A stretch of 64,000 nucleotides of DNA from an uncultured Gemmatimonadales bacterium (lineage in GTDB: Bacteria > Gemmatimonadota > Gemmatimonadetes > Gemmatimonadales > GWC2-71-9): the NCBI GenBank assembly GCA_963739455.1, contig CAVUAK010000001.1:231300-295299 (forward strand), in the 5' to 3' direction. Numbering within the stretch: the stretch's first letter is position 1; every line of letters begins with the position of its first letter. A model generated the notes under the pieces. The model did no database searches. It was not told where the DNA came from and was given only the letters and a program-made list of their open reading frames with translations. Positions 27,518-49,479 of this stretch are shown here, piece after piece. The position numbers were made by a program, and so were the translations under genes.

Positions 27518-30514
27518 TTGAATAGCTTCGATCGCCTCACTGCCGCACTCTCAGACCGCTACCGCATCGAGCGCGAGCTCGGGCACGGGGGCATGGCCAC
27601 CGTCTACCTCGCGCACGACCTCAAGCACGACCGCCGCGTCGCCATCAAGGTGCTCCACCCCGAACTCGCCCACACGCTTGGCCCTGAGCGGTTCCTCCGC
27701 GAGATCACGACGACCGCCCAGTTCGACCATCCGTACATCCTGCCGCTCCTCGACAGCGGCGTTGCTGACTCACGACTGACGACTCACGACTCACGACTGC
27801 TGTTCTACGTCATGCCGTATGTCGAGGGCGAATCCCTCCGCGACCGCCTGAAGCGCGGGAAGCAACTTCCGGTCGATGAGGCGCTCCAGGTCACTCGCGA
27901 AGTCGCGGAGGCGCTCGGCTATGCCCACGCCAGGGGCGTCATTCACCGCGACATCAAGCCGGAGAACATCATGCTCTCGGGCGGCCACGCGCGGGTAGCC
28001 GACTTCGGCATTGCGAGGGCCATCGACGCCGCCGGCAACGAGAAGTTGACAGAAACCGGCCTCGCCATCGGCACACCAGCCTACATGAGTCCGGAACAGT
28101 CCATGGGCGAGCGGCGACCTCGACGGCCGGAGCGATCTCTACGCACTGGGCTGCGTGCTGTACGAGATGCTCGCGGGAGAGCCTCCCTATACCGGGACCC
28201 ACCGCGCAGGCCATCATCGCCAAGCGGATGACGAACCCGGTCCCGTCGGTGCTCACCGTGCGGGAGACGGTGCCGGACTCCGTCGATCGCGCACTGACAC
28301 GTGTGCTCGCCAAGGCCCCTGCTGACCGGTTCCCCACTGCCGCGCGGTTCGTCGATGCGCTGAGCCAGACGGCGACGACTGCGCCGATGGCGGTGAGACG
28401 GCCTGGTGCGCGGAAGAGTGCGAGGATCGTGGGAGCCGGCACCCTTCTGGCGGCAATTCTCTTTGGCGGCTGGCGCTTCGCGCGCGCACACCGGCCACAG
28501 GTCGAGCCATCAGTGTCGGTCATTGCCGTTTTCCCGTTTTCTTCCAGCGGAGACACGGCGCTGGCGCGACTGAGCCGTGACCTCGCCCTCACGATCAGCG
28601 CAAACCTCGACGGGCAGGGCGGCATCCGGACTGTGGACCCCCAACAGGTCTTGGCGAAGGTCGGCGACGGCAGCGGCCAGGGAGCCTCCGACGTGACCGC
28701 GCTCGGGAGGAGCCTCGGTGCCGGAAGCGTGCTCCGGGGCAGCATCGTGAAGGCGGGCTCCGACGCGCAACTCGACCTGAAGCTCGTGTCCACCACCGGT
28801 GACTCCGAGCCGTTGGCGCGGGTATCCCTGCGCAATGCCCCTGACTCCATCAACGCCCTCACGGACTCAATCACCTGGTCCGTGCTCCGGCAGATCTGGC
28901 GCCGGGGCGAGCCGCCCTCTCCGAGCTACGCAAACCTCAGCACCCGATCGGTGCAGTCGCTCCGCGCCTTCCTCGATGGCGAGCGGCTCAGCGTCGCCGG
29001 TCGCTACCCCGAGGCCATCGAGGCTTATTCCGCCGCTATCCAGGCCGACTCGAGTTTCTGGCTGGCCGGCTGGCGATACAATGCGGCGCAGGGATGGATG
29101 AATGATGCCCAGCCCGACTCGAACCTCGAGCGCGGGTATGAATCTCATCTCGCCGCGTTTGGGGAGCGAGATCGAATGCTGATCGAGGCCGAACGAGATG
29201 CCGAAGCTCAGGGTGCCAGGCACCTTGCCAGTATCGCGGCCATCAAGGATCGGTTCCCCACGGACTGGCTCGCCTGGTTCTACTACGCGGACCACCTCTT
29301 TCATGTCGGTGGTGTGCTCGGGCACACGAACGCCGAGACGAGGGACGCGCTGCAGCGCACCGTGGACCTGAATCCCCGAGCTGGTGCCGATGTGGAAGCA
29401 TCTCTTCCAGGCCAGTGTGAGCCACGATTCAGCCCAGAGCGGCCGTGCTCTGAGGGCTATGACCGCACTGGGTCTCTGGTCGGCAGGGTCCGAGGAATCG
29501 AAGCGGGTCGGCTTCGATACAGGGCTGTTCTGGCGCGTGCTCCAGTCGTACGCTGGCGAACCGTCGCTGCCGCTACTCGATAGCCTCGCGGCCAGTGTGG
29601 TCAGCGTGAAATGGCCGGCGCCTCCCACGTTCCTGACGTCAAACGGGTTCCCGGCCGCGCAAGTGCAATTCAACCAGCGCTGGATGCAGCTGGTCCCGAC
29701 TGGCACGCCGATCTGGCGGGCCTGGCGGGGTTCCGCCTATGCGTCGGTGGCCCGCGGCGCGTGGGACTCTGCCCTCGTCATGATGGATCGCTACGCGGCG
29801 GGAAGCCCCGACGACGCGGCAGCCCTCGACATCTATCGACTCGCTGTGATCGGTGCCTGGCTCGGCGGACTCGATACGCTCCGGGCGGCCGAGCGTCGCC
29901 CGGCGGCTGCGAAGTACGTCGCTCGGCTCTCTCCCGACTCCGCCTCCGGCAAGGAGGCGCGCGCGACCTTGGCCTGGAGCGACGGTATGCTCGCAGTGCT
30001 TCGGCGCGACAGGAAATTGCTTTCGACCGCGCGCGAGGCCAACCGGCAGAGTGGCGCCAGCGGGGCCGCGAACACAGGCCGGTTGCTGAGTGCCTTCGAG
30101 GCGCAACTTCGCGAAGAGACGCGAACGGCCGCCGATTCGTTTGCAATGCTGGACATCCCCGACACCACCAGCGCTCTTGCCGAGGTGGATTCGTATACGA
30201 GATCCGTGGCGCACATGAACGCGGCACAGCTGATGCTCGCGCTCGGTGACACAAGCCGGGCCGTTCGCTTGCTGTACTGGCATGAAGCGCACGGCGTCGA
30301 CAAGGATGCCTTTCCCCTCTTTGAGGCACTCGCGTACGACCAGCTGGCCCGCATCGAGGAGGCGCAGGGTAAGGACGACCTCGCCCGCGACCACTACCAG
30401 CAATTCCTCCGACGCTACGATATGCCACCCCCTGCCCATCAGTACATGGTCGACAACGCGAAGGCGGCGCTGCGGCGCCTGTCCGGCCAGAATGACGCTC
30501 CCGCCACAAGGTGA
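27518..30514 (+). pseudogene. Ser/Thr protein kinase K1 (kinase, TM helix, TolB-N-like segment, TPR-like region), interrupted by three +1 frameshifts
   Basis: ORF pieces 27518..28231, 28228..29583 and 29384..30514, plus a short middle frame, join into a ~995-aa protein. Motifs: [41 protein letters not shown]. Extra g at ~28113, extra a at 28197, extra c in the c-run 29374-29377. TTG start. Could be sequencing error rather than true decay. Confidence 0.7.
27767..27799. repeat. GACTCAC-family heptamer tract (about 4.7 units) inside K1
   Basis: gactcac gactgac gactcac gactcac gactgc encodes DSRLTTHDSRL between LLDSG and LFYVMPYVEGESL. Confidence 0.9.
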
Positions 30515-30804
30515 GCGCAGGCAGTACATTCTGTGGCCCCCATGGCCGACAACTCGACCCCACCCGCCGCACTCGCCGCCAGCCTCGCCGACCGCTACCG
30601 GGTCGAGCGCGAGCTGGGCGCCGGCGGCATGGCCACCGTCTACCTCGCTGAAGACCTGAAGCACGGCCGCAAGGTCGCCATCAAGGTCCTCCACCCCGAA
30701 CTCAGTGCCGTCATCGGCGGCGAACGCTTCCTCGCCGAGATCAAGGTCACCGCCGACCTGCAGCACCCCCACATCCTCGGCCTTATCGACTCCGGGGCCG
30801 TTCC

Positions 30805-30862
30805 GTCTGAACTCTGAACTCTCGACCCCTGACCCGTCTGACGACTCACGACTGCCGACTGC
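30805..30862. repeat. degenerate heptamer tract (about 8 units) inside K2, containing a perfect tctgaac duplication
   Basis: g tctgaac tctgaac tctcgac ccctgac ccgtctga cgactca cgactgc cgactgc read directly. Confidence 0.85.
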
Positions 30863-31479
30863 CGGCTTGCTGTATTACGTCATGCCCTTCGTGTCGGGCG
30901 AGTCCCTCCGCGACCGCCTGACCCGCGAGAAACAGCTCCCCGTCGACGATGCGACCCGCCTCGCGAAGGAGGTCGCCTCTGCCCTCGACTATGCCCATCG
31001 CCAGGGCGTCGTCCACCGCGACATCAAGCCCGAGAACATCCTGCTGCAGGAAGGCTCGGCCCTCGTCGCCGACTTCGGCATCGCCCTCGCCGTCCAGCAC
31101 GCCAGCGGCAGTCGCATGACCCAGACCGGCATGTCGCTCGGCACGCCCGTCCTATATGTCGCCCGAGCAGGCAATGGGCGAACGCGTCATCGGGCCGCGC
31201 AGCGATGTGTACGCCCTCGGCGCCATGACCTATGAGATGCTCGTCGGCGATCCGCCCTTCACCGGCAGCACGGTACAGTCGATCGTCGCCAAGGTGATGA
31301 CCGAGAAGCCGCTGCCGCCCTCGCGCATCCGCGACACGATCCCGCCAAACGTCGAGCACGCGGTGATGACGGCGCTGCAGAAGCTCCCCGCCGATCGCTT
31401 CTCCACCGCGAAGGACTTCGCTGACGCGCTCGAGGGCGGACGCTCCGGCACCTACGCCGCGACGGTGGTGACCGGCAAG

Positions 31480-31515
31480 CCTACCCGCCCTCCCCGCCCT
31501 CCCCGCCCTCCCCGC
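31480..31515. repeat. GCCCTCCCC-family nonamer tract (about 4 units) inside K2
   Basis: cctacccg ccctccccg ccctccccg ccctccccg encodes PTRPPRPPRPPR. Confidence 0.85.
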
Positions 31516-33265
31516 GCTTGCGGCGCGCCCTGGCGCTTGCAGGCACTCGGCGCCGCGGCGACGTTCCTCGGCATGCGCACGCGGCAGGCCGCGAGCACCG
31601 AGCGCCGCAAACTCTCCGCTTCACTCTCGGCCTCCCCCCGGACATCCGGATCGCGACCCCGATCACCAACCCGATCGCGATCTCACCCGACGGTGATCTG
31701 GTCGCATTCTCCGGACGGGCCGGCAACGGGCCGCTCCAGATCTTCATCCGACGCATGGACGAACTGGGCGTGGAGGCGATCCCGGGCACCGAGGGCGGCG
31801 AGCAGCCGTTCTTCTCGCCCGACGGCAAGTGGGTCGCGTACTCCGTCAAGCTCCAGCTAAGGAAGGTGGCGGTGACCGGCGGACCCTCGACCGTGCTGGC
31901 CGAGCTGCCCGGTGGCCGCCCGTCGGGTGGCGCATTCGTTCCGGATGGTCGCATTGTCGTCTCACGCGGAAACTCGCTCGCCATCATTCCGGCCGGCGGC
32001 GGCGCGGCGAGACTCCTCTCCGCGACCGACACCGCGACCGACCGCCTGCTGATGAATCCCAAGGTGCTCCCCGACGGCAAGACGGTGATCGTCACCCGCT
32101 GGCGTGGTTCGACGGTGTCGGCGGGCCTCTGGGTGGCCACGATCGGCGAGGGCAAGGCGACCGACCTGGAACTCCCCGGTACCTATGTGCTGGGCATGAT
32201 CGACAGGCACCTCATCTATGACACACAGGCCGGCGTGTTGATGGCGGTTCCCTTCGACATGGCGAAGCGAAAGGTCACCGGACCGCCCGTGTCGTTGCTC
32301 GATGGCATTGCGGTTGGCGCCAATGGCGCGGCCCAGGCCGCGATCTCGGAGAGCGGGACACTGGTCTACCAGACCGGTGCATTGCTCCGGCATGCCCTGA
32401 TCGTCGACCTCCATGGCGCGGTCGTGTCAAAGCTGCTCGACCCGGGCAAGTACGCCGTCCCCCGCTTCTCTCCCGACGGCAGTCGTATCGCCATAGGGCT
32501 GAACAACCAGGGAACCGCGGACATCTGGATGTATGACCTGCGCTCACAGACGCTCAGCCGTATCACGACGGAAGGCGACGTCAACGACCGCCCCGAGTGG
32601 AGCCCCGATGGCAAGCGCATCGTCTTCCGGTCCAATCGGGGCGGACCACTCGCGCTCTGGTCCCAGCCGGCCGACGGCACCGGGAAGGCCGAGTTGGTAT
32701 TTCAGGATCCCAAGGCGGAGATCTGGGAAGGCGTGCCGACGCCTGACGGTGCAAGCATGATCTACCGCACCGGCACCATTGGCACGGCCGACATCTGGCT
32801 GCGGCGGTTGACCGGCGACACCACTCGGCATCCGCTCGCCACGACGCCCTTCACCGAATGGTCCGGCCGGCCGTCACCCGACGGCAAGTGGCTCGCCTAC
32901 GAATCCATCGAGACAGGCGACTTCCAGGTCTACGTTCGTCCCATCGCCGAGGGCGGCGCCCGGCAGCAGGTATCGGTCGACGGCGGTGTCGAGCCAGTGT
33001 GGTCGCCTGACGGTACGACGCTCTACTACCGACACGATGACGAATTCCTGGCCGCTACCCTGACCACCACACCCAGCCTTGCCATCGTCCGGCGCGAGAG
33101 TCTCTTCAAGGGCGACTATCCGGTTACGACGGGCCACGCCAACTACGACATCGCGCCTGACGGAAAACGCCTCCTGCTGTTGCGATCGGTGCCCGACTCG
33201 GTCCACGCGATTGTGGTGCACAACTGGAGCACTGAAGTCCGCGCGAAGCTGGCGGCCGCCGGCAA

Positions 33266-35950
33266 ATGACAATGGACCGCCTCACTGCCTCCCTCGCCGA
33301 CCGCTACCGCATCGAACGCGAACTCGGCCAGGGCGGCATGGCCACCGTCTACCTCGCGCACGACCTCAAGCACGATCGCCCAGTCGCGATCAAGGTCCTC
33401 CGCCCCGAACTCGCTGCCGTCATCGGCGCCGAGCGTTTCCTGAGCGAAATCAAGACCACGGCGAACCTCCAGCACCCTCACATCCTGCCCCTGTTCGACA
33501 GCGGCATCGCCACCCTCGACCCACGACTCACGACTCCACGACCTCTCAACTGCTGCTTCTACGTCATGCCCTTCGTCGAGGGCGAGTCCCTCCGCGATCG
33601 ACTCATACGCGACAAGCAGCTCTCTATCACCGACGCCGTACGCATCGCCACGGAAGTCGCTGGCGCCCTCGACTACGCCCATCGTCGCGGCATCGTCCAT
33701 CGCGACATCAAGCCCGAGAACATTCTGCTGCATGACGGCCGGGCCCTGGTTGCCGATTTCGGCATCGCCCTCGCCGCGAGCAAGGCGGGCGACAGTCGCA
33801 TGACCCAGACCGGCATGTCCCTCGGCACACCCGCCTACATGTCGCCCGAACAGGCCATGGGCGAGCGCGATATCGGCCCCCGCAGCGACATCTATGCGCT
33901 CGGCGCCATGACCTACGAGATGCTCGTCGGTGATCCGCCCTTCACCGGCAGCACCGTGCAGTCGATCGTCGCCAAGGTGATGACCGAGAAGCCGGTGCCG
34001 CCCACGCGCATCCGCGACACTGTGCCGCCCAATGTCGAGCACGCGGTGCTCACCGCACTGCAGAAGCTCCCCGCCGATCGCTTCGCCTCCGCGAAGGAGT
34101 TTGCCGACGCCTTGGCGGACAGTGGACGGTCAGGCAACTACGCGGCGACGGTCGCTACGGGGACAACCCGCCTTCCCCGCCCTCCCCGCCCTCCCCGCCT
34201 CGGACTGATCGCTGCGGTTGCACTCATCTCCACCGCCGCGGGCCTGGCGGGCTGGCTCATGCGCGGAAGCTCGCGCGCGGGTCCTGCCACCTACGACGCC
34301 GCCCTCCCCGACAGCGCCGCCATCACGTTCGGCGCGACGACGTCCACCAGCAGCTTCGGTGCTGCCCGTCGCAACCTGTCGATCTCGCCCAGGGGCGACT
34401 TCGCCGTGTACGCCTCGCGGAGTGGTGACTCGACCCAGTTCTGGTACAGGAGCCTGAAGGATGCGGCGTCGCATCCCATCAGCGGCACCGAGGGAGGTAC
34501 CGGTCCAAGGATTTCTCCCGACGGATCCCGCATCGCGTACACCGCCGGCAATCGAGTCATGCTGATCCCCATTGCGGGAGGCACGCCCCGGATGCTGCTG
34601 GACGCCCAGGTGCCCGACAGCCCGGAATGGATTTCCAATACCGAGCTTTTCCTGCCGCAGCGCACCGGAACCCGCTTCACCCTGCTCGACCCCGAGGGTG
34701 GCGTGACGCATACCGTGGATCAGGCACACCCCTGCCTCGTCGGGCACTGGATTCCTGAGTATCGCGAGGTGATCTGCTCTTACAACGGAACGGCATCGAT
34801 TGTCGACCCGATCTCCCGCGAGGAGTGGAGCCTGCGCGTCGCCCGGCCCGATGGTTCGCCTGGGGCCAGCGTGGCCGGGTTCGGGTTCCGCGTCGTTGAC
34901 GGAGCGTACGTCGTCTACATGTCGGTGGACGGCGTGCTCCGCGCTGCACCCTACGACCACAAGCGACACCTCGTCGGCCGGTCGGTCACGCTCGATGGCG
35001 GAGTTCGCGGTGAGGCGCTGGGCGATGCCCAGATCGACATGGCGCCCAGCGGTACGCTCGTATTCGCCCCGGGAGTGAACGCGGCGGTTGGACACGTGGT
35101 CCGGCTTCGACCAGGACAGGCCCCGGAGCCATTGGTCGCTGAGGCGGCCGCCTTCCAGCGTATCGATATCAGCCGCGACGGCCGCTGGCTCGCCGCCGCG
35201 GTACAGATGGCGGAGGGCCAGGAGCTGCGCATCTACGATCTGCGCGATGGACAGCGCAGCACCATGCTCAGCGCCGAACTGGTTCGCCAGCCGCTGTGGA
35301 GTCCCACCGGAGCCCAGCTCCTCGTGTCCCGGCGCGACTCCAGCCTGAGCTCGATACTGATGACCGTGCCCGGGTCCGGCCACAAGCCCGTCACCCTGCT
35401 GACCGTCGAGGGCGCACCACTGGCGGTCGATCCGATCGACTATCCCGAGGAGCACACCGTCCTCCTGCAGGACTGGGGCGCCAACGTCACCCGCCGCTTC
35501 GACCCAGCGATATCCCCGGCGCAATTCGACACCGTCCTCACGGCGGCGAGGTTTCCTTCCGTGGCACCGGATGGAAAGCACATCATCTATCAGGACGGTG
35601 GAGCATCGGGCGTTCTCGTCACCAGCTATCCCGTGGCCGGCCGGCGCTGGCAGGTCGCCGCTGACGGGGTCGAGCCGCTATGGCTTTCCTCCACCGAGAT
35701 TCTCTGTCGCATCGGCGTCTCCTGGTACCTGACGCGCATCAACCCCGCGACTGGCGAACCGCTCGGGCCCGCGACGCTCTGGGGTCGTGACCCTCGCTTC
35801 AACGACACTGCAGGATGGTCCAACCGCCCCGACTGGCACGGCGGCATCATCTATGTCCAGGGCCCGGCCGAAGTGAGCGCCAGCTTCCTGCGCGTCGTGC
35901 CCAACTGGGTGGCACAGATGAAGAACGCTGTCGCCGCAGCCAATCGCTAA
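33266..35950 (+). CDS. Ser/Thr protein kinase K3 (kinase, PRP linker, TM helix, beta-propeller), intact
   Basis: 894-aa uninterrupted ORF. ATGA overlap with the K2 stop. All Hanks motifs present. TM helix LGLIAAVALISTAAGLAGWLM. C-terminal PD40/TolB-like repeats. Confidence 0.85.
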   Translation: MTMDRLTASLADRYRIERELGQGGMATVYLAHDLKHDRPVAIKVLRPELAAVIGAERFLSEIKTTANLQHPHILPLFDSGIATLDPRLTTPRPLNCCFYVMPFVEGESLRDRLIRDKQLSITDAVRIATEVAGALDYAHRRGIVHRDIKPENILLHDGRALVADFGIALAASKAGDSRMTQTGMSLGTPAYMSPEQAMGERDIGPRSDIYALGAMTYEMLVGDPPFTGSTVQSIVAKVMTEKPVPPTRIRDTVPPNVEHAVLTALQKLPADRFASAKEFADALADSGRSGNYAATVATGTTRLPRPPRPPRLGLIAAVALISTAAGLAGWLMRGSSRAGPATYDAALPDSAAITFGATTSTSSFGAARRNLSISPRGDFAVYASRSGDSTQFWYRSLKDAASHPISGTEGGTGPRISPDGSRIAYTAGNRVMLIPIAGGTPRMLLDAQVPDSPEWISNTELFLPQRTGTRFTLLDPEGGVTHTVDQAHPCLVGHWIPEYREVICSYNGTASIVDPISREEWSLRVARPDGSPGASVAGFGFRVVDGAYVVYMSVDGVLRAAPYDHKRHLVGRSVTLDGGVRGEALGDAQIDMAPSGTLVFAPGVNAAVGHVVRLRPGQAPEPLVAEAAAFQRIDISRDGRWLAAAVQMAEGQELRIYDLRDGQRSTMLSAELVRQPLWSPTGAQLLVSRRDSSLSSILMTVPGSGHKPVTLLTVEGAPLAVDPIDYPEEHTVLLQDWGANVTRRFDPAISPAQFDTVLTAARFPSVAPDGKHIIYQDGGASGVLVTSYPVAGRRWQVAADGVEPLWLSSTEILCRIGVSWYLTRINPATGEPLGPATLWGRDPRFNDTAGWSNRPDWHGGIIYVQGPAEVSASFLRVVPNWVAQMKNAVAAANR
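33515..33550. repeat. degenerate GACTCAC-family tract inside K3
   Basis: ctcgacc cacgact cacgact ccacgac ctctcaa encodes LDPRLTTPRPLN at the same kinase loop position. Confidence 0.7.
34167..34200. repeat. GCCCTCCCC-family nonamer tract inside K3
   Basis: cccgccttccccgccctccccgccctccccgcct encodes RLPRPPRPPRL. Confidence 0.85.
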
Positions 35951-36023: not shown

Positions 36024-36275
36024 ATGGCCATCAGCATCAAGGACGCCGAAACCGACCGCCTCGCCCGCGCACTCGCCGCCGTTACCGGCGAGTCCCTCAC
36101 CGAGGCAATCAGGCGCGCCCTCCACGAACGCCTCGAACGTGAGTCCCATCGCGCACGCCGCGGCATCGATGCAGAGGTCCGCCGAATCCAGGAGCGCGTC
36201 GCTCGCCTGCCAATAGTGGACTCCCGGCCCGCAAGCGAAATTCTGGGCTACGACGAGCACGGCCTGCCGCACTGA
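36024..36275 (+). CDS. vapB: type II antitoxin, VapB family
   Basis: 83 aa, [38 protein letters not shown]... It ends 3 nt before a PIN-domain gene. Confidence 0.8.
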
Positions 36276-36278
36276 ACC

Positions 36279-36671
36279 ATGGTCATTGATACCTCTGCCC
36301 TTGTGGCCATCCTGACACACGAGACGTCAGCCGATCGGCTCGTCGTGGCGCTTGAGGCCGATCGCACGCGCCTCGTGTCCGCGGCAACAGTGGTCGAGGC
36401 ATCGCTCGTCCTGCTCGGGCGCTACGGAGAGGCCGGCGAGGCTCAACTCGATCGATTACTGCGTGGCATCGGGGCGGAAGTCGTTCCGGTCGGGGAGGAA
36501 CAGGTCGTACTGGCACGCGATGCCGCGCTGCGCTTCGGGCGCAGCCGTCATCCGGCTGCGCTCAACTTCGGCGATTGCTTCAGCTACGCCCTCGCCGTCG
36601 CACGGGACGAACCGCTCCTGTTCGTGGGTGACGATTTCTCGAAGACTGATGTCGAGGTCTGCTCCTGGTAG
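36279..36671 (+). CDS. vapC: type II toxin, PIN-domain ribonuclease VapC
   Basis: 130 aa. MVIDTSALVAIL (first acidic residue), ..VSAATVVEASLVL.., ..LNFGDCFSYALA.. are characteristic PIN motifs. Confidence 0.85.
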   Translation: MVIDTSALVAILTHETSADRLVVALEADRTRLVSAATVVEASLVLLGRYGEAGEAQLDRLLRGIGAEVVPVGEEQVVLARDAALRFGRSRHPAALNFGDCFSYALAVARDEPLLFVGDDFSKTDVEVCSW

Positions 36672-36673
36672 GC

Positions 36674-38941
36674 CTGAATGACGTTACGACCCGCCTCACC
36701 GCTGCCCTCGGCGACCGCTATCGCATCGAGCGCGAGCTCGGCCAGGGTGGCATGGCCACCGTCTATCTCGCCCACGACCTCAAGCACGACCGCAAGGTCG
36801 CCATCAAGGTCCTCCGGCCCGAGCTCGCCGCCTCACTCGGCGCTGATCGTTTCCTCTCCGAGATCCGGACAGTCGCCGCACTGAGCCACCCGAATATCCT
36901 GCCACTCTTCGACAGCGGCGTAGCCACCCTCGACCCTGAACGCTTAACTCCTGACTCTCAACTGTTGTTCTACGTCATGCCCTTCATCGAGGGCGAGACC
37001 CTCCGCGCCCGCATGACCCGCGAGAAGGCTCTCCCCGTCGACGAGGCCGTGCGCCTCACCCGCGAGATTGCCGACGCCCTCGCCTATGCCCACGCGCACG
37101 ACGTCATCCACCGCGACATCAAGCCGGAAAACATCCTGCTCCAGTCCGGCCATGCCGTGGTCGCCGATTTCGGTATTGCCCGCGCCGTGAGGACGGCCGG
37201 CGCCGAGCGCATGACGGAGGTGGGCCTGGCCATCGGCACGCCCGCCTACATGAGCCCGGAACAGTCGGCCGGTGAGCGCGACCTGGACGGCCGGAGCGAT
37301 CTCTACGCCCTGGCCAGCGTGCTCTACGAGATGCTTGCCGGCGAGCCGCCGTTCACCGGCGCAACCGTCGAGGCCATCCTGGTCCAGCGCTTCACCCAGC
37401 CGCCCCCGAAGATCACGAAGAAGCGGCCCACCATTCCGCGCGCGATCGAGGCAGCCCTGTACACGGCGATGGCCCGCGCCCCCGAGGAGCGCTTCCCCAC
37501 CGTCGAGCGGTTTGTTGCCTCACTTGAATCGAAGGAGACGTCGAGCACCGAGCTCGAGCGCTCCATTGCCGTGCTGCCCTTCGCCAACATGAGCGGCGAT
37601 CCGGAGAACGAGTACTTCTCCGACGGCATCTCCGAGGAGATCATCAACGCCCTGACCCAGTTGCCGAAGCTTCGCGTCGCGGCACGGACGTCTGCCTTTT
37701 CCTTCAAGGGCAGGAACCTCGACCTCCGGAGCGTCGGCGAGCAGCTGAACGTCGCCACCGTGCTCGAGGGGAGCGTGCGGCGCGCCGGCGGACGGATCCG
37801 CATCACCGCGCAGCTCGTCAATGTCGCCGACGGCTACCATCTCTGGTCCGAGCGCTACGACCGGGAGCTCACCGACATTTTCGCCATTCAGGATGAGATC
37901 GCCACTGCCATCGCCGGGAAGCTGAAGGTGACGCTCGGCGTGGGCAGCGAACGACAGCTGGTCCGTGCCCCTACCACGAACGTCGAGGCGTACGACCTCT
38001 ATCTCAAGGGACATGCCTTCGTGAAACAGCGGGGCCTCGCCCTGCTGCGCGCGGCGGATTGCCTCGAGCAGGCCATCGCACTCGATCCCGACTTCGCGCT
38101 CGCACACGCGGAACTCGCCGAGGCGCTGGTCCTGATGAGCCTGTATGGAATCGTCCTTCCTGCCGACATCCGCGACCGGGCGCGTCACGCCACCTCTCGC
38201 GCGCTGGAGCTCGATCCCGCCCTCGTCACCACCCAGATCGCGCTCGCCCTCTACTCCATCATCGTTGAGTTCGACCAGGCCGGGACGAAAGCGGCCTTCG
38301 CCCGCGCCATCGAGCTTGACCCTGCCGACATCGACGCCCGGACCTTCCAGGCGGCGTTCGACTTTTGCTACATTCGCGGCGAGCACGAACGCGCCGTCGC
38401 GCAACTCCTCGGCGTTGTCGAGTCGGATCCGCTGAGTGCAGTAGCACGCGGTCAGGCCGGTATCGTGCTCGCCTTCGCCGGAAGGCTCGACGAGGCGGAG
38501 GCACAGGCCCGGCGGGGCATCGCGCTCGACCCGGGCGCGTTCTACTCCCACTGGGCCCTGCTCCACGCCTTGATGCTGGGTTCCAGGCCAGCGGCTGGAG
38601 TGCAGGAAGGCCGCGCGATGCTGGCGCGTTTCGGCCGCCACCCGTGGCTCATGATGGGTGTCGCCTATGCCTGCGGAGCGGCGGGGCAGCCGGACAAGGC
38701 CGCGGCCATCTACGCCGAGCTCGAGGCTCGCTCCCGTGGCGAATACGTCCAGCCGGTGTCGCTCGCCGTCTCCGCCCTGGGAGCCGGCCGCCGGGATCTG
38801 GCGTTGCAGCATGTTCGCGAAGCCGGTCGCATCCGTGACCCCATGCTCGCAGCCACCGGTCTCCACGGCCCGATGTTCCCCTCGATCCGTAACGAACCGG
38901 AATACATTGCCATCCTCGAAGAGCTTGGTTGGCACAACTGA
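36674..38941 (+). CDS. Ser/Thr protein kinase K4 (kinase, TolB-N-like segment, TPR), probable CTG start
   Basis: The track ORF starts at ATG 36752, inside the Gly-loop. The frame is open upstream through ..RLTAALGDRYRIERELGQGG. CTG AAT at 36674 aligns with the TTG AAT start of K1. IAVLPFANMSGDPENEYFSDG segment, then TPR-like repeats. Confidence 0.75.
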   Translation: MNDVTTRLTAALGDRYRIERELGQGGMATVYLAHDLKHDRKVAIKVLRPELAASLGADRFLSEIRTVAALSHPNILPLFDSGVATLDPERLTPDSQLLFYVMPFIEGETLRARMTREKALPVDEAVRLTREIADALAYAHAHDVIHRDIKPENILLQSGHAVVADFGIARAVRTAGAERMTEVGLAIGTPAYMSPEQSAGERDLDGRSDLYALASVLYEMLAGEPPFTGATVEAILVQRFTQPPPKITKKRPTIPRAIEAALYTAMARAPEERFPTVERFVASLESKETSSTELERSIAVLPFANMSGDPENEYFSDGISEEIINALTQLPKLRVAARTSAFSFKGRNLDLRSVGEQLNVATVLEGSVRRAGGRIRITAQLVNVADGYHLWSERYDRELTDIFAIQDEIATAIAGKLKVTLGVGSERQLVRAPTTNVEAYDLYLKGHAFVKQRGLALLRAADCLEQAIALDPDFALAHAELAEALVLMSLYGIVLPADIRDRARHATSRALELDPALVTTQIALALYSIIVEFDQAGTKAAFARAIELDPADIDARTFQAAFDFCYIRGEHERAVAQLLGVVESDPLSAVARGQAGIVLAFAGRLDEAEAQARRGIALDPGAFYSHWALLHALMLGSRPAAGVQEGRAMLARFGRHPWLMMGVAYACGAAGQPDKAAAIYAELEARSRGEYVQPVSLAVSALGAGRRDLALQHVREAGRIRDPMLAATGLHGPMFPSIRNEPEYIAILEELGWHN

Positions 38942-38979
38942 CGACTCCCTGACGACTGATGACTGCCGACTGATGACCG
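38938..38979. repeat. CTGACGA/CTGATGA heptamer tract spanning the K4 stop and the next gene's start codon
   Basis: ctgacga ctcc ctgacga ctgatga ctgccga ctgatga ccgac read directly. TGA 38939-38941 and ATG 38973-38975 both lie inside repeat units. Confidence 0.8.
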
Positions 38980-39926
38980 ACATCCGTCCCATCACACTCG
39001 ACGAAATCCGCGCCGCGCGCACCCGCATCGCCGGCACCATCCTGCGCACGCCACTCGTCAAGCTCGAGCTCGGCCCCGGCTATCCCGACATCCGCCTCAA
39101 GCTCGAGAACCTGCAGCCCATCAACTCCTTCAAGCTTCGCGGTGCCGCCAACGCCGTTGCCCTGCTGACAGATGCCGAACGGAAGCTCGGCGTCTGGACC
39201 ATCAGTGCCGGCAACGCCGGCCAGGGTGTGGCGTATGCCGCGCGGCAGGCTGGAGTCCCCTGCACGGTCGTCGTCATCGAGACGGCGCCCGCCTCCAAGG
39301 TCGAGCGCATGAAGGCGCTCGGCGCCAAACTGGTGCTGGTGCCGTTCGCCGTCGCATGGAAGGCGCTCGAGGACCGCACCTATCCCGGCATCGAGGGCAC
39401 CTTCGTGCACCCCTTCGATGACCACAACTTCATCGCCGGCAATGCCACGGTTGGTCTCGAGATTCTCGAGGACGTCCCCGATGTCGCCGTCGTCATCGCT
39501 GCCCTAGGCGGCGGCGGCCTCATCGCCGGCGCCGGCAGCGCAATCAGGCCGCTGCGCCCAGACGTCAGGATCCTCGCCGCCGAACCCGAGACGGCGGCGC
39601 CCATGTCGCTCTCACTCGAGAAGGGCTCGCCCCAGGCGTTTCCCGGCTGGCAGGCCTCCTTCATTGACGGCGCAGGTGGCAAGAGTGTCTTTCCGCGCAT
39701 GTGGGAACGCATGCACGGCCTGCTCGACGGCAGCATTGTGGTCACCCTCGAGCAGGTGAAGGCCGCGGTCCGGCTCATGGCCGAGAAGTCCCGGGTCATC
39801 GCCGAGGGCGCCGGCGCCTTGCCGCTCGCCGCCGCACTCACCGGCAAGGCCGGTCCGGGCCCGATCGTGTGCATCGTCTCCGGTGGCAACATCGACCTCG
39901 ACAAGTTCGCCGAGTTCATCGCATGA
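38973..39926 (+). CDS. PLP fold-type II enzyme (threonine/serine dehydratase-like)
   Basis: In frame with track ORF 38658..39926. ATG 38973 gives MTDIRPITLDEIRAARTRIAG... NSFKLRGA lysine motif, SAGNAGQGVAYAA, GGGGLIAG glycine loop. Confidence 0.8.
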   Translation: MTDIRPITLDEIRAARTRIAGTILRTPLVKLELGPGYPDIRLKLENLQPINSFKLRGAANAVALLTDAERKLGVWTISAGNAGQGVAYAARQAGVPCTVVVIETAPASKVERMKALGAKLVLVPFAVAWKALEDRTYPGIEGTFVHPFDDHNFIAGNATVGLEILEDVPDVAVVIAALGGGGLIAGAGSAIRPLRPDVRILAAEPETAAPMSLSLEKGSPQAFPGWQASFIDGAGGKSVFPRMWERMHGLLDGSIVVTLEQVKAAVRLMAEKSRVIAEGAGALPLAAALTGKAGPGPIVCIVSGGNIDLDKFAEFIA

Positions 39927-41974
39927 GCCTGGACGCGCGCCTTGTTGCCGCCCTTGCTGATCGCTACCGCATCGAGCGCGAGCTCGGTGAGGGCGGCATG
40001 GCTACCGTCTACCTCGCCCACGACCTCAAGCACAACCGTCCCGTCGCGATCAAGGTCCTCCGCCCCGAACTCGCCGCCGCACTCGGGGCAGACCGATTCC
40101 TCCGCGAAATCGAGACGACGGCTAATCTCCGCCACCCGAACATCCTCCCATTGTTTGACAGTGGTGCACTGCCGACTGACTCACGACTGCCGACTGACGA
40201 CTCACGACTGCTGTACTACGTCATGCCCTTCATCGACGGCGAGTCGCTCCGAGATCGCTTGAAGCGCGAGGGACAGCTGTCGATTCCCGATGCCCTCCAG
40301 GTCGCCCGCGAAGTGGCCGATGCCCTCGGGTATGCCCACAGCCGCAATGTCATCCATCGCGACATCAAGCCCGAGAACATCCTTCTCGAGCGGGGACATG
40401 CCGTCGTCGCTGATTTCGGCATCGCCCGGGCCGCGAGCACCGCTGGCGCCGGGAGGCTCACCCAGACCGGCATGGCTATCGGCACCCCGGCCTACATGAG
40501 CCCGGAGCAGTCAGTGGGCGAGTCGGATGTCGACGCCCGCAGCGACCTGTACGCGCTCGGTTGCGTGCTGTACGAAATGCTGGCTGGTGAGGCACCCTAC
40601 ACCGGGCCGAATGCGCAGGCCATCATCGCCAAGCGTTTCATGGAGCCGGTGCCACGCATCTCCACCTTGCGGAGCACCGTTTCGCCTGCACTCGAGGCGG
40701 CCGTGAGTCGGCTCCTCGCCAGGTCGCCCGCCGATCGCTTTGCGACTGCGGATGAGTTCGTGAGGGCGCTCGACGATCCCGCGCCAGCCACGGTCACGGC
40801 GCCGGTGGTCGTTGAGGAGGGCTTCTGGATCGTGGTGATGCCCTTCCGGTTCAGCGGCGCGAGCACCGAGCTGACCGCACTGGCAGAAGGACTCACCGAT
40901 GAGATCGTGGCTGGGCTGTCACGATTCTCGTATCTCCGCGTTTCGCTCGGCGAGAAGCCCGGCGCGCGCTATGTGATCGAGGGAACCCTTCGTCAGGCAG
41001 GCGCAGCCCTGCGGCTGTCGGTGCAGCTGGTGGACACGAACTCGCGCGCCCACGTGTGGGCCGAGACCTACGATCGTGCCTTCCAGTCGGGGGACATCTT
41101 CGTGCTGCAGGACGATCTCGTCCCCCGCATCGTCTCCACGGTGGCTGACGCACATGGCGCCCTCCCTCATACCCTGAGCGAAGCACTGCGCGGCAGGGAT
41201 CCGGGTCTGCTCACGCCATACGAGGCCGTGTTGCGCAGCTTTGGCTACGGCTATCGCATGACGCCGGAAGAGCACGCTGCCGTGCGGGCCTGCCTGGAGA
41301 GAGCCGTCACGCAGGCGCCCGGCTACGCCGATGCCTGGGGCATGCTGTCGCTCGTGTATGCGGAGGAGTTCTCCAACGGGTTCAATGCGCGGCCCGATCC
41401 GCTCGGGCGTGCACTCCAGGCGGCTCGGCGCGCAGCCGACGCTGCACCGTCAAGCGCCCTGGCATACAACGCCCTGGCCCGGGCACTGTTCTTCCGGAAG
41501 GAGTTCCCCGCCTTCAGGGTCGCGGCGCAGCGTGCCATTGAACTCAATCCTTTCAACGGACCCACGCTCGCCGGCCTGGGTGGCATGGTGGCGTACGCCG
41601 GCGACTGGGAAGCTGGCTGCGCCCACGTCGAGCGGGCGTTGCGGCTCAACCCGCGACACCCCGGCGGCTACTGGTTCCCCCTGTACTACAATGCCTATCG
41701 TCAGGGGGACTACCGCGCTGCGCTGAACTTCGCCCTCAACATCGACCTCCCGGAATTCTTCGCGACGCACGAGGTCCTGGCCGCCGTCTATGGCCAGCTC
41801 GGGGAACGTGACGCGGCCGCGAGGAGCCTGCGGGAACTGCTCCGGCTGAAGCCCGACTTCGCCGCGACGATGCGCGAAGAAACCGGGAAGTGGCTCGATC
41901 GAGACCTCGTCGAGCACCAGGTCGATGGGCTTCGCAAGGCGGGACTGGAGCTTCCCGATGACATTGGACACTGA
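39923..41974 (+). CDS. Ser/Thr protein kinase K5 (kinase, TolB-N-like segment, TPR), intact
   Basis: In frame with ORF 39701..41974. ATG 39923 overlaps the upstream stop (ATGA) and gives MSLDARLVAALADRYRIERELGEGGMATVYLA. All Hanks motifs present. FWIVVMPFRFSG segment and TPR-like C-terminus. Confidence 0.85.
   Translation: MSLDARLVAALADRYRIERELGEGGMATVYLAHDLKHNRPVAIKVLRPELAAALGADRFLREIETTANLRHPNILPLFDSGALPTDSRLPTDDSRLLYYVMPFIDGESLRDRLKREGQLSIPDALQVAREVADALGYAHSRNVIHRDIKPENILLERGHAVVADFGIARAASTAGAGRLTQTGMAIGTPAYMSPEQSVGESDVDARSDLYALGCVLYEMLAGEAPYTGPNAQAIIAKRFMEPVPRISTLRSTVSPALEAAVSRLLARSPADRFATADEFVRALDDPAPATVTAPVVVEEGFWIVVMPFRFSGASTELTALAEGLTDEIVAGLSRFSYLRVSLGEKPGARYVIEGTLRQAGAALRLSVQLVDTNSRAHVWAETYDRAFQSGDIFVLQDDLVPRIVSTVADAHGALPHTLSEALRGRDPGLLTPYEAVLRSFGYGYRMTPEEHAAVRACLERAVTQAPGYADAWGMLSLVYAEEFSNGFNARPDPLGRALQAARRAADAAPSSALAYNALARALFFRKEFPAFRVAAQRAIELNPFNGPTLAGLGGMVAYAGDWEAGCAHVERALRLNPRHPGGYWFPLYYNAYRQGDYRAALNFALNIDLPEFFATHEVLAAVYGQLGERDAAARSLRELLRLKPDFAATMREETGKWLDRDLVEHQVDGLRKAGLELPDDIGH
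40167..40212. repeat. GACTCAC-family heptamer tract (about 6 units) inside K5
   Basis: cactgcc gactgac tcacgac tgccgac tgacgac tcacgac tgctg encodes LPTDSRLPTDDSRL. Confidence 0.85.
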
Positions 41975-44411: not shown

Positions 44412-44459
44412 GTCCTCCCCGTCCTCCCCGCCCTCCCCGCCCTCCCCGCCATATTATCC
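44412..44459. repeat. GCCCTCCCC/GTCCTCCCC nonamer tandem repeat, 5.3 copies, intergenic
   Basis: gtcctcccc gtcctcccc gccctcccc gccctcccc gccctcccc gcc read directly. It ends 2 nt before ATG 44462. Confidence 0.9.
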
Positions 44460-44461
44460 CC

Positions 44462-45836: not shown

Positions 45837-45880
45837 GAGTAGGAGGCGGGAGGGCGGGGCGCCCCTCAGGACTGGCGCAG

Positions 45881-45931
45881 CTCACGACTCACGACCCACG
45901 ACTCACGACCCACGACCCACGACCCACGACC
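45881..45931. repeat. CTCACGA/CCCACGA heptamer tandem repeat, 7 copies, intergenic
   Basis: ctcacga ctcacga cccacga ctcacga cccacga cccacga cccacga read directly. It is preceded at 45841-45862 by gaggcgggagggcggggcgcccc, an inverted nonamer-family fragment. Confidence 0.9.
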
Positions 45932-45941
45932 GAGGTTCCGC

Positions 45942-46776
45942 GTGATCGATATCGCCCAGTTCCATCCCCAGTTCGTCCACTTCGTCGTCGCACTCGGCGT
46001 TGCCGGCGTCATTTTTCGCCTCATCTCCCTCACCGGCAAGGCGACGTGGACCAATCCCGCCGCCACCACCCTCCTCCTTGTCGCCGCGCTGTTCAGCATG
46101 GCCGCGGTCAAGTCAGGCGCCGAGGCCCACGGACCCGCCGAGCGCGTCCCTGGCGCTCGTGACGCCGTTGAGGAGCACGAGGAACTCGGCGAGCGCACCC
46201 GCAATCTCTTCCTTCTCGTCGCCGCACTCGAGCTCGCCGCGATCGCCTTCAAGCAGCGCCACAACTGGCAGCGCGGATTTCGCGTCGCTTCCGGCATCGG
46301 TGGCATTGCCGCCGCCTTCACGCTCTACCAGGCCGGCGAGGCGGGCGGCAAGCTCGTCTATTCGTATGCCGGTGGTGTTGGTCTTCGGAGCGGCGACCCC
46401 GCCGACGTCCAGCGCCTCCTCGTGGCCGGCCTCTATCATCAGGCCCGCGCCGCTCGCGCCGCTGGCAAGCACGCCGAGGCCGCGCGCCTCATCGACGAGC
46501 TCGCCCTCCAGCGCCCCGACGATCCGTCGATTGTTTATCTGTCGGTCGAATCCATGATCCGCGATCGCCAGGATGCCGCGGGAGCACTCGTCGTCCTCGC
46601 CGCCCAGGCTCCAGCCGGCCGACAACACCCGCCTCAACATCCAGAAGGGCCTGCTCACCAGCGAGGCCTTCGACTCGCTTGGCCAGCCCGACTCCGCCCG
46701 CGCCACGCTCCAGGCGCTCGCGACCCAGTTCCCCAAGAACCGCTTCATCGCCGAGGCCGTCGCGAAGCACCAATAG
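45942..46776 (+). pseudogene. DUF2231-like membrane protein with a TPR-like C-terminus, one +1 frameshift
   Basis: GTG 45942. FHPQFVHFVVALGVAGVIF and 3-4 TM helices. At ~46616-46620 the frame passes to that of 46573..46776 (..AAQAPA / DNTRLNIQKGLL..AVAKHQ*). Confidence 0.45.
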
Positions 46777-46797
46777 GGGGCCTAGATTCCATCCTCT

Positions 46798-49479
46798 GTG
46801 ACAGCCCCCATTGTCAGGCTCCGAGATGCACTTAGCGACCGCTACCAGCTCGAATCCGAGCTCGGAGCGGGCGGAATGGCCACCGTATATCTCGCACAGG
46901 ACCTGAAGCACGGTCGGCAGGTCGCCATCAAGGTCCTTCACCCAGAGCTCGCGGCCGTCATCGGCGCCGATCGCTTCCTCGCCGAGATCAAGGTCACCGC
47001 CAGCCTCCAGCACCCCCACATCCTGCCGCTCTTCGACAGTGGTGCCATCTCCGCAGATGGACGGCTGTCGACTGACGGCTCACTGACGACTCACGACTCA
47101 CGACTGCTGTTCTACGTCATGCCCTATGTCCAGGGCGAGTCGCTCCGCGGCCGGCTCAACCACGATCGCCAGCTTCCCGTTCCCGACGCTGTCCGGATCG
47201 CGACTGAAGTCGCCAGTGCACTCGACTACGCCCATCGCCGCGGCGTCATCCATCGCGACATCAAGCCCGAGAATATCCTCCTGCACGACGGCACCGCGCT
47301 GGTGGCCGACTTCGGCATCGCGCTCGCCCTCACCGCGGCGGGCGGCGGACGCCTGACGCAGACTGGCCTCTCGCTCGGCACGCCAGCCTACATGAGTCCC
47401 GAGCAGGCCATGGGCGAGCGCGACATTGGCGCACGCAGCGATGTCTACGCCCTTGGCGCCATCACCTACGAGATGCTCACCGGCGAGCCCCCCTTCACCG
47501 GGCCCACGGCACAGGCCATCGTGGCCCGCACACTGACGGAAGCTCCGCGCCCCATCTCGCCGCAGCGCAAGAGCGTGCCGCCGTCGGTCGAGAACGCCGT
47601 GCTCACCGCGCTCGAGAAGCTCCCCGCCGATCGCTACGCGACCGCGAAGGAGTTCAGCGACGCCCTCGCCGACGAGAAGGCAAGACCGCGCTCCGGCAAG
47701 GGGAGCACGGTGCAGATGCGGCAGCACACCTGCCGCTCCTGCCGCCCGGTGGGGGTGGGTGGTGGGCGGTGCCGCCGCCGTTGCCGGTGCGATTGCTCTC
47801 GGCATGGCCCTGGGTCGGAGCACCGGCAACGCTGCCGCCTCCACCGCGGGCCCCGTCCGCTTCAGCCTGCCCGAGCTCAACAACGTCGGGTACTTCTCCG
47901 TCGCACCCGACGGTCGCCAGATCCTCGGCGTCTCGCCCGACTCGAGCGGAGTGCTTCACGGCTGGATCCGGAAGCTCGACGATCTCCAGCCGTCCGGCCC
48001 TCTCTGGCACCGCAGGCGCGGAGCGCGTCTGGCTTTCGCCTGACGGCAAGCAGGTGGTCATGCGCGTCGGCGGAGCGCTCAAGCTCCTGCCGCTGTCTGG
48101 AGGGACAGCCCGCGAACTCGACCCAGGTGCGCGGCTATGTCACCGCCGAGTGGGGACCGCAGGACAGCATCGCGGTGGTGAGTGGAGCCGACCTCCTGCT
48201 CGTGCCGGCGCTGGGCGGGCAGCCGCGGGTCATCGCCACGGTTGATAGCGCGGCAGGAGATATCTCCTTTTACATCCCGCGTTTCCTGCCCGGTGGCCGC
48301 CAGCTCCTGGTTGGCCTACGTCACGCGCTCGACTCCATCGCGCTCTACCAGATGGACATCGCGACCGGCAAGCGCGACCATGTGCTGCCAAACGTCCAGG
48401 AGGCGCGCTTCTACGAACCGGGCCGTCTCCTGTGGCTCGACGCCGATGGGACTGTTCGCTACGCGACGTATGACCCGGGCACGAGGAAGGTTGGCGCCAG
48501 CCAGGTCGGCGTGGCCGAGGGCATGGATGACTTCTACGCCAATGGCGATCTCGTGGTGCTCCGGCCCGGCCTGCCCAACCGCAACCTGCGCTTCTACAAC
48601 GAGCGGCTTGGCACCAGCACCGAGGTCGCGTATCCCGACAGTACGGTCAGCGTTCCGGTGTTCTCGTACGATGGCTCCCGTCTCGCCATGTCGATCACGC
48701 CGAGCACCGAGCTTCGCAGCGTGCAGCGGGCCGATCAGGCGCGGGGCACCGACCTCTGGATCCTCGACCGCGCCACCGGGTTGCGCCGCCGCGTCGCTGA
48801 GCAGGCATTTGGCGCCGCCTGGTCGCCCGACGACCAGCGCATCGCTTTCACGCGCACCAACGTGGGCAGCAGTGACCTCTGGATTGCGCCGTCGGCGGGT
48901 GGCGAACCGGTGCGGATCGGCAACGAGAAGACCCGCAAGTTCGGGCTGACCTTCACGCCAGATGGACAGGCGCTCGTCTATGCCCAGCTGCCGACCAATC
49001 GCATTACGATCCAGCCGCTGGCGGCCAGTGCCCCGGCGACGGCACTGTTCGACGACGACGCCGGTGCGGAGGGCGACGCCACCTTCTCGCCCGACGGGAA
49101 GTGGCTGCTCTACCAGACCTTCGACGGACTGAGTGGGCGCGCGGTGGTGCGGGCCTGGCCCGGTCTCGATCGACGCACCGTCATCATGACGGTGGGAAAC
49201 TGTGGCGCACACTGGGGCGACCACGGCACGCGCATCTATGGCTGCACGCCCGATGGCAAGGTGGCCTGGATCGGGTTCGACCCGGCCACCGGCCGTCCCG
49301 TCGGCTCCCCGCAGCCGGTGCCGCAGGTGACCCAGAGCGAGCCCGACTTCGACGTGAACCCGACCGGCCTCGACATCGCCTGGATCTCTGCCCCACCGCG
49401 CTTCGGCACCGAGCCCGTCGTGCTCGCGCACTGGCTCGCCGACGCCGAGCGTCGCCTTCAGGGACTGGGGAAGAGATGA
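46798..49479 (+). pseudogene. Ser/Thr protein kinase K6 (kinase, TM helix, beta-propeller) with three +1 frameshifts hidden inside an apparently open 893-aa ORF
   Basis: The kinase domain is intact. Between ~47720 and 48120 the annotated frame is Arg/Cys-rich nonsense. The TM helix (VVGGAAAVAGAIALGMAL) and first propeller blades read in frame +1 (47759..48043) and then +2 (47769..48245: LSGTAGAERVWLSPDGKQVV). The sense frame returns to the original at ~48120. Confidence 0.7.
47060..47108. repeat. GACTCAC-family heptamer tract (7 units) inside K6
   Basis: gacggct gtcgact gacggct cactgac gactcac gactcac gactgct encodes DGRLSTDGSLTTHDSRL. Confidence 0.85.

Follow-up and report, generated by a model that had tools for sequence, protein, structure and literature searches.

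Each of six Hanks-type serine/threonine kinases encoded in a 64,000-nt stretch of an uncultured Gemmatimonadales genome (GenBank assembly GCA_963739455.1, contig CAVUAK010000001.1, positions 231,300 to 295,299; hereafter the window, in whose coordinates positions are given) carries a tract of 7-nt units in one and the same loop of its catalytic domain, and these loop tracts were confirmed as true heptamer-period simple-sequence repeats, i.e., as a property of the DNA. Between close relatives the tracts turn over while the reading frame is retained, the encoded peptides are not conserved, and the periodicity goes beyond what the peptides account for. The window has a guanine-cytosine (GC) content of 66%, its best protein matches bear Gemmatimonadetes or Gemmatimonas names, and the kinase genes (K1 to K6) all lie on the + strand between 27.5 and 49.5 kb. 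The window was compared with the contigs L081, L082, L204, and L205, which are syntenic with it and complete the five-genome comparison (the nearest database relative is ~90% identical to the window), with 80 related GTDB genome loci among the matches listed (L001–L080, all metagenome-assembled genomes of Gemmatimonadota), and with metagenome contigs (L083–L202).

Heptamer tracts in the kinase loops

The original prediction, made from the letters of the window, had placed a heptamer tract at the same loop in all six kinases, and this was borne out by Tandem Repeats Finder (TRF) for five of them and by the self-match at a lag of 7 nt for K4 (z = 4.0). The tracts, all on the + strand, comprise 45 nt in K1 (VADSRLTTHDSRLLF, 27761..27805; units GACTCAC and GACTGAC; TRF; lag-7 z = 6.1), 79 nt as assembled in K2 (30797..30875; a length of 3n + 1, with TCTGAAC × 2.4 followed by GACTCAC/GACTGCC units), 54 nt in K3 (IATLDPRLTTPRPLNCCF, 33506..33559; TRF), 51 nt in K4 (VATLDPERLTPDSQLLF, 36920..36970; diverged units, lag-7 match 0.52, below the TRF threshold), 51 nt in K5 (ALPTDSRLPTDDSRLLY, 40166..40216; TRF), and 69 nt in K6 (AISADGRLSTDGSLTTHDSRLLF, 47044..47112; TRF). 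Period-7 arrays were delimited by TRF within kinases at 27767–27798 (GACTCAC × 4.6), 30806–30822, 30834–30864, 33512–33543, 40178–40209, and 47082–47105, and between genes at 38949–38981 and 45883–45931 (× 7.0). All eight tracts, i.e., the six loops and the two intergenic arrays, had a lag-7 self-match (0.49–0.93) above that of shuffled sequences (z = 3.0–8.9). The two-unit pattern CGACTSMCGACTSM with up to one mismatch was matched 22 times vs 0.84 expected, a number reached by 0 of 100 shuffles, and all 22 matches fell on the + strand inside seven of the eight tracts. The units are thus repeated head to tail above chance, as in simple-sequence repeats of the heptamer class. The longest perfect runs amounted to 1.7–2.9 units in the loops and to 4.0 units in the array starting at 45881.

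The assignment of the units to a GACTCAC type held, with the restriction that the units of K3 and K4 have diverged (CTCGACC/CTGAACG type). As had been proposed, the tracts are translated as 7-residue repeats (e.g., VADSRLTTHDSRL and ALPTDSRLPTDDSRL) and differ in length among paralogues, the distance from DSG to Y being 45, 79, 54, 51, 51, and 69 nt in K1 to K6; the same distance is 21 nt in 101 of 122 related kinases. The stop codon TGA arises from the reverse complement of GACTCAC as well as from one phase of GACTGAC.

Periodicity at the DNA level and turnover among orthologues

Each loop peptide was synonymously re-encoded with the codon usage of the window and its lag-7 match compared with that of the real tract, which yielded 0.49–0.66 for the real vs 0.37–0.44 for the re-encoded sequences (p ≤ 0.022 for each of five tracts). 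Among orthologues, the K5 loop measures 42 nt in L082, 45 nt in L204, 51 nt in the window, 51 nt in L081, and 57 nt in L205, the respective units being ACTCACG, TCGACCC, CGACTSM, CCCCTCA, and ACTGACG, and heptamer periodicity was detected in every K5 orthologue by TRF. The K5 peptides of the window (ALPTDSRLPTDDSRL) and of L081 (AIPLTPDPSPLTRQL) have few residues in common, in kinase domains that are 94–96% identical. The K3 loop comprises 81 nt in L204, 54 nt in the window, and ~21 nt in L081 (remnant GCCGACTCC), the K6 loop 69 nt in the window vs 45 nt in L082 with the 3' 30 nt identical, and K2 of L081 has a canonical 21-nt EADGLLY loop. Length variation at the same locus among close relatives, as is typical of microsatellites, was thus found for K3, K5, K6, and the array upstream of a PALP-family gene (see below).

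Since the orthologues switch length and unit in frame and without a conserved peptide, the signal lies at the DNA level. The proposal of a DNA-level element as opposed to a conserved peptide therefore stood, supported by the re-encoding, by orthologue turnover, and by the intergenic copies, and instead of an insert of fixed length and conserved peptide the orthologues showed changes in length, unit, and peptide alike. The description of the repeat as a maintained microsatellite was too strong, because the tracts are subject to turnover and both lose and gain length. A recent gain of the K3 tract was considered and discarded in favor of a contraction in L081, as L204 (89% identical) carries the 81-nt tract; a recent gain in K2 was likewise not adopted, as the change there may have run either way. 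Gene conversion among the six paralogues was also rejected, tract identity (0.35–0.76) not exceeding flank identity.

Position of the tracts in the kinase fold

K1 to K6 carry the motifs L[FLI]DSG, YVMP[YF], HRDIKP, and DFGIA, K3 to K6 match PF00069 of Pfam (E = 1e-38 to 9e-49), and with all catalytic motifs present the host genes belong to the Hanks type, which is defined by a Gly-rich loop, the VAIK lysine, HRD, and DFG. All six genes are located on the + strand: K1 (27518..29583), identified by its motifs, is a Ser/Thr kinase with an uncharacterised C-terminus; K2 (30542..33269) combines the kinase domain with a PD40 propeller, K3 (33266..35950; Pfam) and K6 (46798..49479; Pfam) with PD40, and K4 (36674..38941; Pfam) and K5 (39923..41974; Pfam) with TPR.

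The best match of the host domains in the PDB was PknB of Mycobacterium tuberculosis (K5 alignment, E = 4e-59), and the K5 tract aligns opposite PknB residues 79–88, right after D76-T77-G78. In the AlphaFold2 model of K5 (predicted local distance difference test (pLDDT) 86.7), strand β4 covers residues 79–83, the tract residues 84–95, and strand β5 residues 96–102, with a mean pLDDT of 77–82 across the ten-residue blocks spanning the tract. Alignment and model agree with the predicted location between the L[FLI]DSG and YVMP motifs in the β4-β5 region of the N-lobe, the tract being modelled as the tip of the β4-β5 hairpin. In PknB, D76 together with R10 belongs to the back-to-back dimer interface (PMC13434768). 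The equivalents of D76 and R10 in the kinases studied here, D79 and R14, are invariant or nearly so in the family, and the equivalent of PknB L33 is His, not Leu. As the tract adjoins the D76 equivalent and D76/R10 are conserved, an influence of the tract on kinase dimerisation appears plausible from the aligned sequences.

Insertions at the same loop across the kinase family

For a survey of the family, 232 kinase domains were aligned with the loop masked, and loops of >8 residues were counted as enlarged. An enlarged loop was present at the β4-β5 site in 51 of the 232 domains (22%), which required at least 33 state changes on a neighbour-joining tree. The nearest neighbours of most insert-bearing kinases have canonical loops at 80–98% identity, and DNA alignments showed clean inserts flanked by conserved sequence. 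At the other 265 aligned positions, insertions of at least three residues occurred at four sites, each in one to three sequences; with insertions elsewhere nearly absent, the β4-β5 tip is, judged by this alignment, an extreme insertion hotspot in this kinase family.

Many sequence classes without relation to one another are represented among the inserts, and most inserts are themselves non-triplet repeats, e.g., TTCCCCT-type 7–8-mers in L008, the repeat units GCCCAATC in L014 and GCGGGGAA in L039, and a 14-mer repeat in L068. Others are inverted arrays whose arms are reverse complements (L059, L203/P0017, L040, and, as ESRV...DSRL, P0006/P0021) or in-place duplications of the loop's own codons (GADGGAD in L032, RTDGQTDG in P0040), and their composition varies between G/E-rich, P-rich, and S/T-rich. 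Among the matches listed for L001–L080, the long loops were multiples of three in 21 of 21 cases. The notion that a non-triplet repeat in a catalytic domain is unusual was retained, with the amendment that the feature is not peculiar to these six genes, roughly one family member in five having other, unrelated inserts of short repeats at the same loop. A count over 1.12 Mb of Gemmatimonadota sequence gave 98 arrays with a period of 7, 8, or 14; the convincing intragenic ones were nearly all kinase loops and the rest intergenic. Since these loci were picked via kinases, the sample is biased, and it gives no more than a rough estimate of how rare arrays are in other proteins.

The inverted inserts of loops and linkers were located at 175–255 and 2862–2942 in L059, at 10169–10246 and 1944–2018 in L203, and at 522–584 in L040. 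Inverted pairs such as (GGGTCAA)n...(CCCTCGA)n would form DNA or mRNA hairpins within the coding sequence, and the ESRV and DSRL arms are reverse-complement translations of one another.

Repeats also occupy a second site, the linker following the kinase domain: 9-mers encoding (PRP)n in K2 and K3, 8-mers (L081, L204, and L205), and inverted 8-mers (L203). The K2 linker array consists of the 9-mer CCCTCCCCG (31480..31515, + strand), and the 9-mer array of the K3 linker (34167..34199, + strand) encodes (PRP)n directly before a predicted membrane helix.

Intergenic arrays and wider occurrence of the units

The units were predicted to occur outside genes as well, and both intergenic arrays of the window were recovered by TRF and are conserved in position in relatives. 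The first (38938..38979, + strand; CTGACGA/CTGATGA/CTGCCGA) extends from the stop codon of K4 to the ATG (38973) of the PALP-family gene; it is kept in position in L081, L204, and L205 with differing unit numbers (~42–54 nt across the four genomes), and in all four the PALP ATG lies within the last repeat unit. The second (45881..45931, + strand; CACGACT/CACGACC × 7) starts ~48 nt past the true end of a sugar transporter gene, ends 10 nt before the start of a DUF2231 gene, and is also present in L082. L204 and L205 contain additional arrays located between convergent genes, and the units CTCACCC (K5 loop of L081) and CACGACC (kinase loop of L204) recur as intergenic arrays in sister genomes.

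The sequence CGACTSM × 3 + CGACT was found in at least 120 metagenome contigs with a GC content of 0.36–0.74, so that such arrays occur in very different bacteria. About 107 of 129 arrays among the metagenome matches listed were intergenic or at edges of open reading frames (ORFs), some as inverted pairs, and among the matches listed (at least 120 contigs) 0 arrays were located in a kinase loop; these units thus make up a family of repeats widespread between genes, to which the kinases are the exception. One metagenome array measured 172 nt (L101). A test of the orientation and start-codon proximity of the metagenome arrays scored 42 of 90 vs 38% in a random control, a comparison blurred by spurious long ORFs, which are common in GC-rich DNA. 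Units observed in L083–L202 included CGACTCA, CGACTGC, and CGACTCC. No Rfam match reached the gathering score between 26000 and 50000 of the window.

Frame breaks in the window

As assembled, the LIDSG and YYVMPF motifs of K2 lie in different frames. Compared with intact relatives by tblastn, ~10 frame-breaking indels of 1–5 nt were found in 22 kb, including in non-kinase genes: near 28113 and 28200 (K1), at the tract and near 31146 and 31474 (K2), near 45503 (sugar transporter), near 46618 (DUF2231), and at 47728–48122 (K6). K6 contains three indels, and its residues ~308–440 are read in a frame other than that of the L082 orthologue though the ORF remains open. As frameshifts also affect the sugar transporter and DUF2231 and three fall in K6, the indels are probably errors of an error-prone long-read assembly, and an interpretation of K1, K2, and K6 as pseudogenes was not followed. 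A slippage-inactivated allele of K2 was set aside on account of the indel-rich window and because removal of a single G also repairs the frame, and programmed frameshifting at K2 was dismissed upon reading the sequence, the CTC-TGA context being unlike a prfB-type shift site. For K4, an ATG, GTG, or TTG start was not found 5' of the Gly-rich loop (36650–36760), and the first listed start (36752) lies within GQGGMATVY; the gene could start at a non-standard codon (CTG), be defective, or have been misassembled.

Neighbouring genes and other repeat families

Genes interspersed among the kinases encode a VapBC-like pair, a pyridoxal phosphate (PLP)-dependent enzyme, a flavin adenine dinucleotide (FAD) monooxygenase, a sugar transporter, and a DUF2231 protein. 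The VapB/VapC-like (PIN) toxin-antitoxin pair (36024–36671) lies between K3 and K4, and contig L081, which is 90% identical, lacks the entire block of VapBC and K4 (~3 kb); on the right this block is bounded by the heptamer array preceding the PALP gene. A PhdYefM-PIN pair is located immediately 5' of a kinase in L082 and L204, and in L082 this pair is preceded by a CTCACGA array (7940–7964). The PLP-dependent, dehydratase-like gene of the PALP family (38973..39926, + strand), whose start codon is the one lying within the last repeat unit, overlaps with its stop the start of K5 (ATGA, 39923–39926), and the order PALP then K5 is kept in L081, L204, and L205. The overlap and the conserved order suggest co-translation of the dehydratase-like enzyme with the sensor kinase.

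Two further repeat families were noted. The heptamer (CCCTGTT)n, i.e., (AACAGGG)n on the other strand, occupies short intergenic spacers, mostly with 3–4 units (window 4045–4066, 20310–20337, 22269–22298, 27407–27426, and 51679–51701; L081 11309–11425 with 17 copies). A 9-mer family (CCCTCCCCG; GGGGAGGGC on the other strand) is found between genes at 44414–44450, 52837–52870, and 55864–55984, the last being a composite with a 37-nt period, in addition to the linkers of K2 and K3, and every unit contains a GGAGG Shine-Dalgarno-like core on the G-rich strand.

Origin and persistence of the loop arrays

The explanation we favor, at a probability of roughly 60%, is that heptamer arrays prone to slippage persist at one of the few sites where the protein tolerates insertions, with selection acting on frame, on stop codons, and perhaps on length. 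The arrays would stem from a pool of units shared across the lineage, C-rich and G-poor (CACGACT, CACGACC, CTGACGA, CTCGACC, CTCACCC), the usual home of which would be short spacers between genes, right next to stop and start codons. They would arise, grow, shrink, and swap unit variants via presumed replication slippage or via recombination, and within genes they would survive solely when the orientation read is free of stops and the total length can be divided by three. Structural tolerance for such arrays would, in these kinases, apparently be confined to the hairpin tip and the post-kinase linker. Three units span 21 nt, so that every phase of the unit is translated in turn, giving arbitrary 7-residue repeats rich in S, T, D, R, L, P, and H; selection would keep the length at a multiple of three and remove stops, would leave the peptide unconserved, and may act on loop length.

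Several observations weigh against this explanation. For a passive filter, the preference for this one site is extreme, as kinases possess other loops on their surface. The DNA of canonical loops shows no particular likeness to repeats (best-lag self-match 0.39–0.42 vs 0.42 ± 0.03 in the rest of the domain) and was accordingly discarded as a slippage seed, so that the origin of arrays at this very place is not accounted for. Some inserts (K2; L059, L203, L040) are heterogeneous or inverted and look copied in rather than grown. Although bacteria usually show a deletion bias, the K5 loop is still extended in five of five genomes, and loop length may therefore be selected. Slippage itself, like structural tolerance as the reason for the site specificity, is inferred.

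In a second account, the loop would be adaptive and hypervariable, a long and changing hairpin beside the back-to-back interface tuning or insulating dimerisation among paralogues and the repeat serving as an evolvability device; in a variant of this idea, the tract could provide Ser/Thr phospho-sites. We regard this as unlikely, albeit not far-fetched. The start of the tract right after the DSG aspartate, i.e., the equivalent of the interface residue D76 (PMC13434768), the near invariance of D79 and R14, the 22% of the family with enlarged loops, and the K5 loop, still extended in each of the five orthologues but changing in sequence, would all fit. Neither peptide nor length is conserved, however (K3 81 to ~21 nt), the insert compositions are widely different, C-rich units automatically yield S/T richness, His takes the place of L33, and the argument draws on sequence and model. 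A conserved functional peptide with an incidental heptamer pattern is barely credible and has been largely refuted by the orthologue comparison: LTTHDSRLLF, encoded by the 3' part of the tract, is indeed identical in K6 and its L082 orthologue and common to K1, K6, and P0013, yet the periodicity exceeds that of synonymous re-encodings, the K5 orthologues have unrelated peptides, and the units are also found outside genes.

Arrays, among them inverted ones of the hairpin type, might instead have been moved into the loop from intergenic sites or paralogues, in analogy to the in-frame Rickettsia palindromic elements, whether through template switching, gene conversion, or some small mobile element; we consider this rather improbable. 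Consistent with copying are the 58-nt insert of heterogeneous units in K2 vs the EADGL loop of an 86%-identical orthologue with unchanged flanks, the inserts with inverted arms (L059, L203, L040; ESRV...DSRL in P0006 and P0021), the match of loop units to intergenic array families, and paralogue pairs within one genome with identical (L059) or 94% identical (L014) inserts. However, those pairs are recent duplicates with equally similar flanks, flank identity around the window tracts is not raised, terminal inverted repeats, a clear target-site duplication, and a constant element length are lacking, and some inserts are plainly in-place loop duplications (L032, P0040). A transposase or reverse transcriptase was not associated with the inserts, and none of nine ORFs scanned with Pfam contained a reverse-transcriptase domain, although no systematic search for reverse transcriptases or diversity-generating retroelements was made. 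It would be a long shot that the hairpin is a targeted landing site at which intergenic arrays, hairpin-forming inverted ones included, are actively copied in beside the dimer interface, acting as a novel, tiny form of in-frame selfish DNA or as a diversifier of kinase pairing among dozens of paralogues. A phase-variable contingency switch, in which gain or loss of one 7-nt unit toggles individual sensor kinases, is very unlikely. A unit length not divisible by three would suit it, as would the out-of-frame K2, in which dropping one of the two perfect TCTGAAC units restores the frame, and heptanucleotide repeats do drive phase variation of hmw in Haemophilus influenzae (PMC8262952). Against it, the loops lack a long near-perfect tract, with perfect runs of just 1.7–2.9 units vs 13–24 in the hmw promoter constructs studied; K2 is the only out-of-frame case, with 0 of 21 long loops out of frame among the GTDB loci listed; the ~10 frame-breaking indels in 22 kb of the window include non-kinase genes; and a change of GGGG to GGG at 30794–30797 in the DSG codon repairs K2 equally.

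Relation to known repeats and significance

The TAACTGA repeats of Beggiatoaceae, cyanobacteria, and Bacteroidetes lie a few nucleotides from start codons, may overlap the upstream stop, and occur inside genes solely at protein peripheries (MacGregor 2015, PMC4679880). The window arrays likewise are direct 7-nt repeats with an ACTGA core (CGACTGA) in few copies per array, may overlap the stop codon preceding them, have stops in the forward orientation, are rare within genes, and end within a few nucleotides of a start codon (PALP in the last unit, DUF2231 10 nt on). In contrast to the TAACTGA type, their units (CGACTGA, CGACTCA, CGACTGC, CGACCCA) are GC-rich with several variants coexisting, and copies sit not at protein ends but in a catalytic domain's core, where the same loop is hit repeatedly. 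By this analogy, the window arrays look like a high-GC counterpart of TAACTGA-type heptamer repeats.

Heptameric repeats are, according to a citation of Mrazek 2007 in PMC4692102, over-represented in large, high-GC bacterial genomes. Those of Xanthomonas (GGGAATC) and Nostoc (GGGGAYT) are mostly intergenic and near genes, with a conserved position and with length and sequence varying between close relatives, for which polymerase slippage has been proposed (Rehm 2015, PMC4692102). Period, mostly intergenic location, kept position, and variable length and sequence are shared with the arrays described here, whereas the tracts within the kinases are translated and have little G on their sense strand; the (CCCTGTT)n arrays of the window are a closer match to that class and resemble the G-quadruplex-forming GGGAATC, which prefers four units. 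The (ATCTTTC)n phase-variation tracts of H. influenzae hmw promoters, of 13–24 units in the constructs studied (PMC8262952), are also tandem 7-nt units and change copy number by slippage; the kinase tracts differ in being short, imperfect, and intragenic, and on/off alleles were not seen. Rickettsia palindromic elements of ~150 bp with a defined consensus are inserted in frame in scattered unrelated genes (reviewed in PMC10969869) and resemble the kinase inserts in that non-coding-type repeat DNA is translated inside conserved enzymes at fold-compatible sites. By contrast, the kinase inserts are short tandem arrays of variable units, concentrated at a single loop of a single family; those of the window form direct arrays of variable length without inverted arms, such arms being found in relatives alone. 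With PknB (PDB 3F69/1MRU) the kinases share all catalytic motifs, and the β4-β5 loop of PknB is also somewhat longer (EAETPAGPLP), but their C-terminal sensors are PD40/TolB-like propellers or TPR and not PASTA, and their loop is repeat-encoded. In the library searched, no paper joining a heptanucleotide repeat with Gemmatimonadetes was found. The intragenic loop arrays are an unusual and apparently undescribed variant of known bacterial heptamer repeats, notable for recurring at one loop of a catalytic domain.

Non-triplet repeats are usually excluded from bacterial coding sequence or act as on/off switches. Here they are stably translated within a catalytic domain, repeatedly at one hairpin of one enzyme family, which shows a route from 'junk' repeat DNA to a protein loop and connects such loops in kinases with the heptamer arrays, as yet poorly understood, that many bacteria have at their gene starts. 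In practical terms, the tracts are traps for gene callers and for indel-prone long-read assemblies. The 51 enlarged loops among 232 domains, many with canonical close relatives, form a natural series on the tolerance and use of N-lobe insertions adjacent to the dimer interface.

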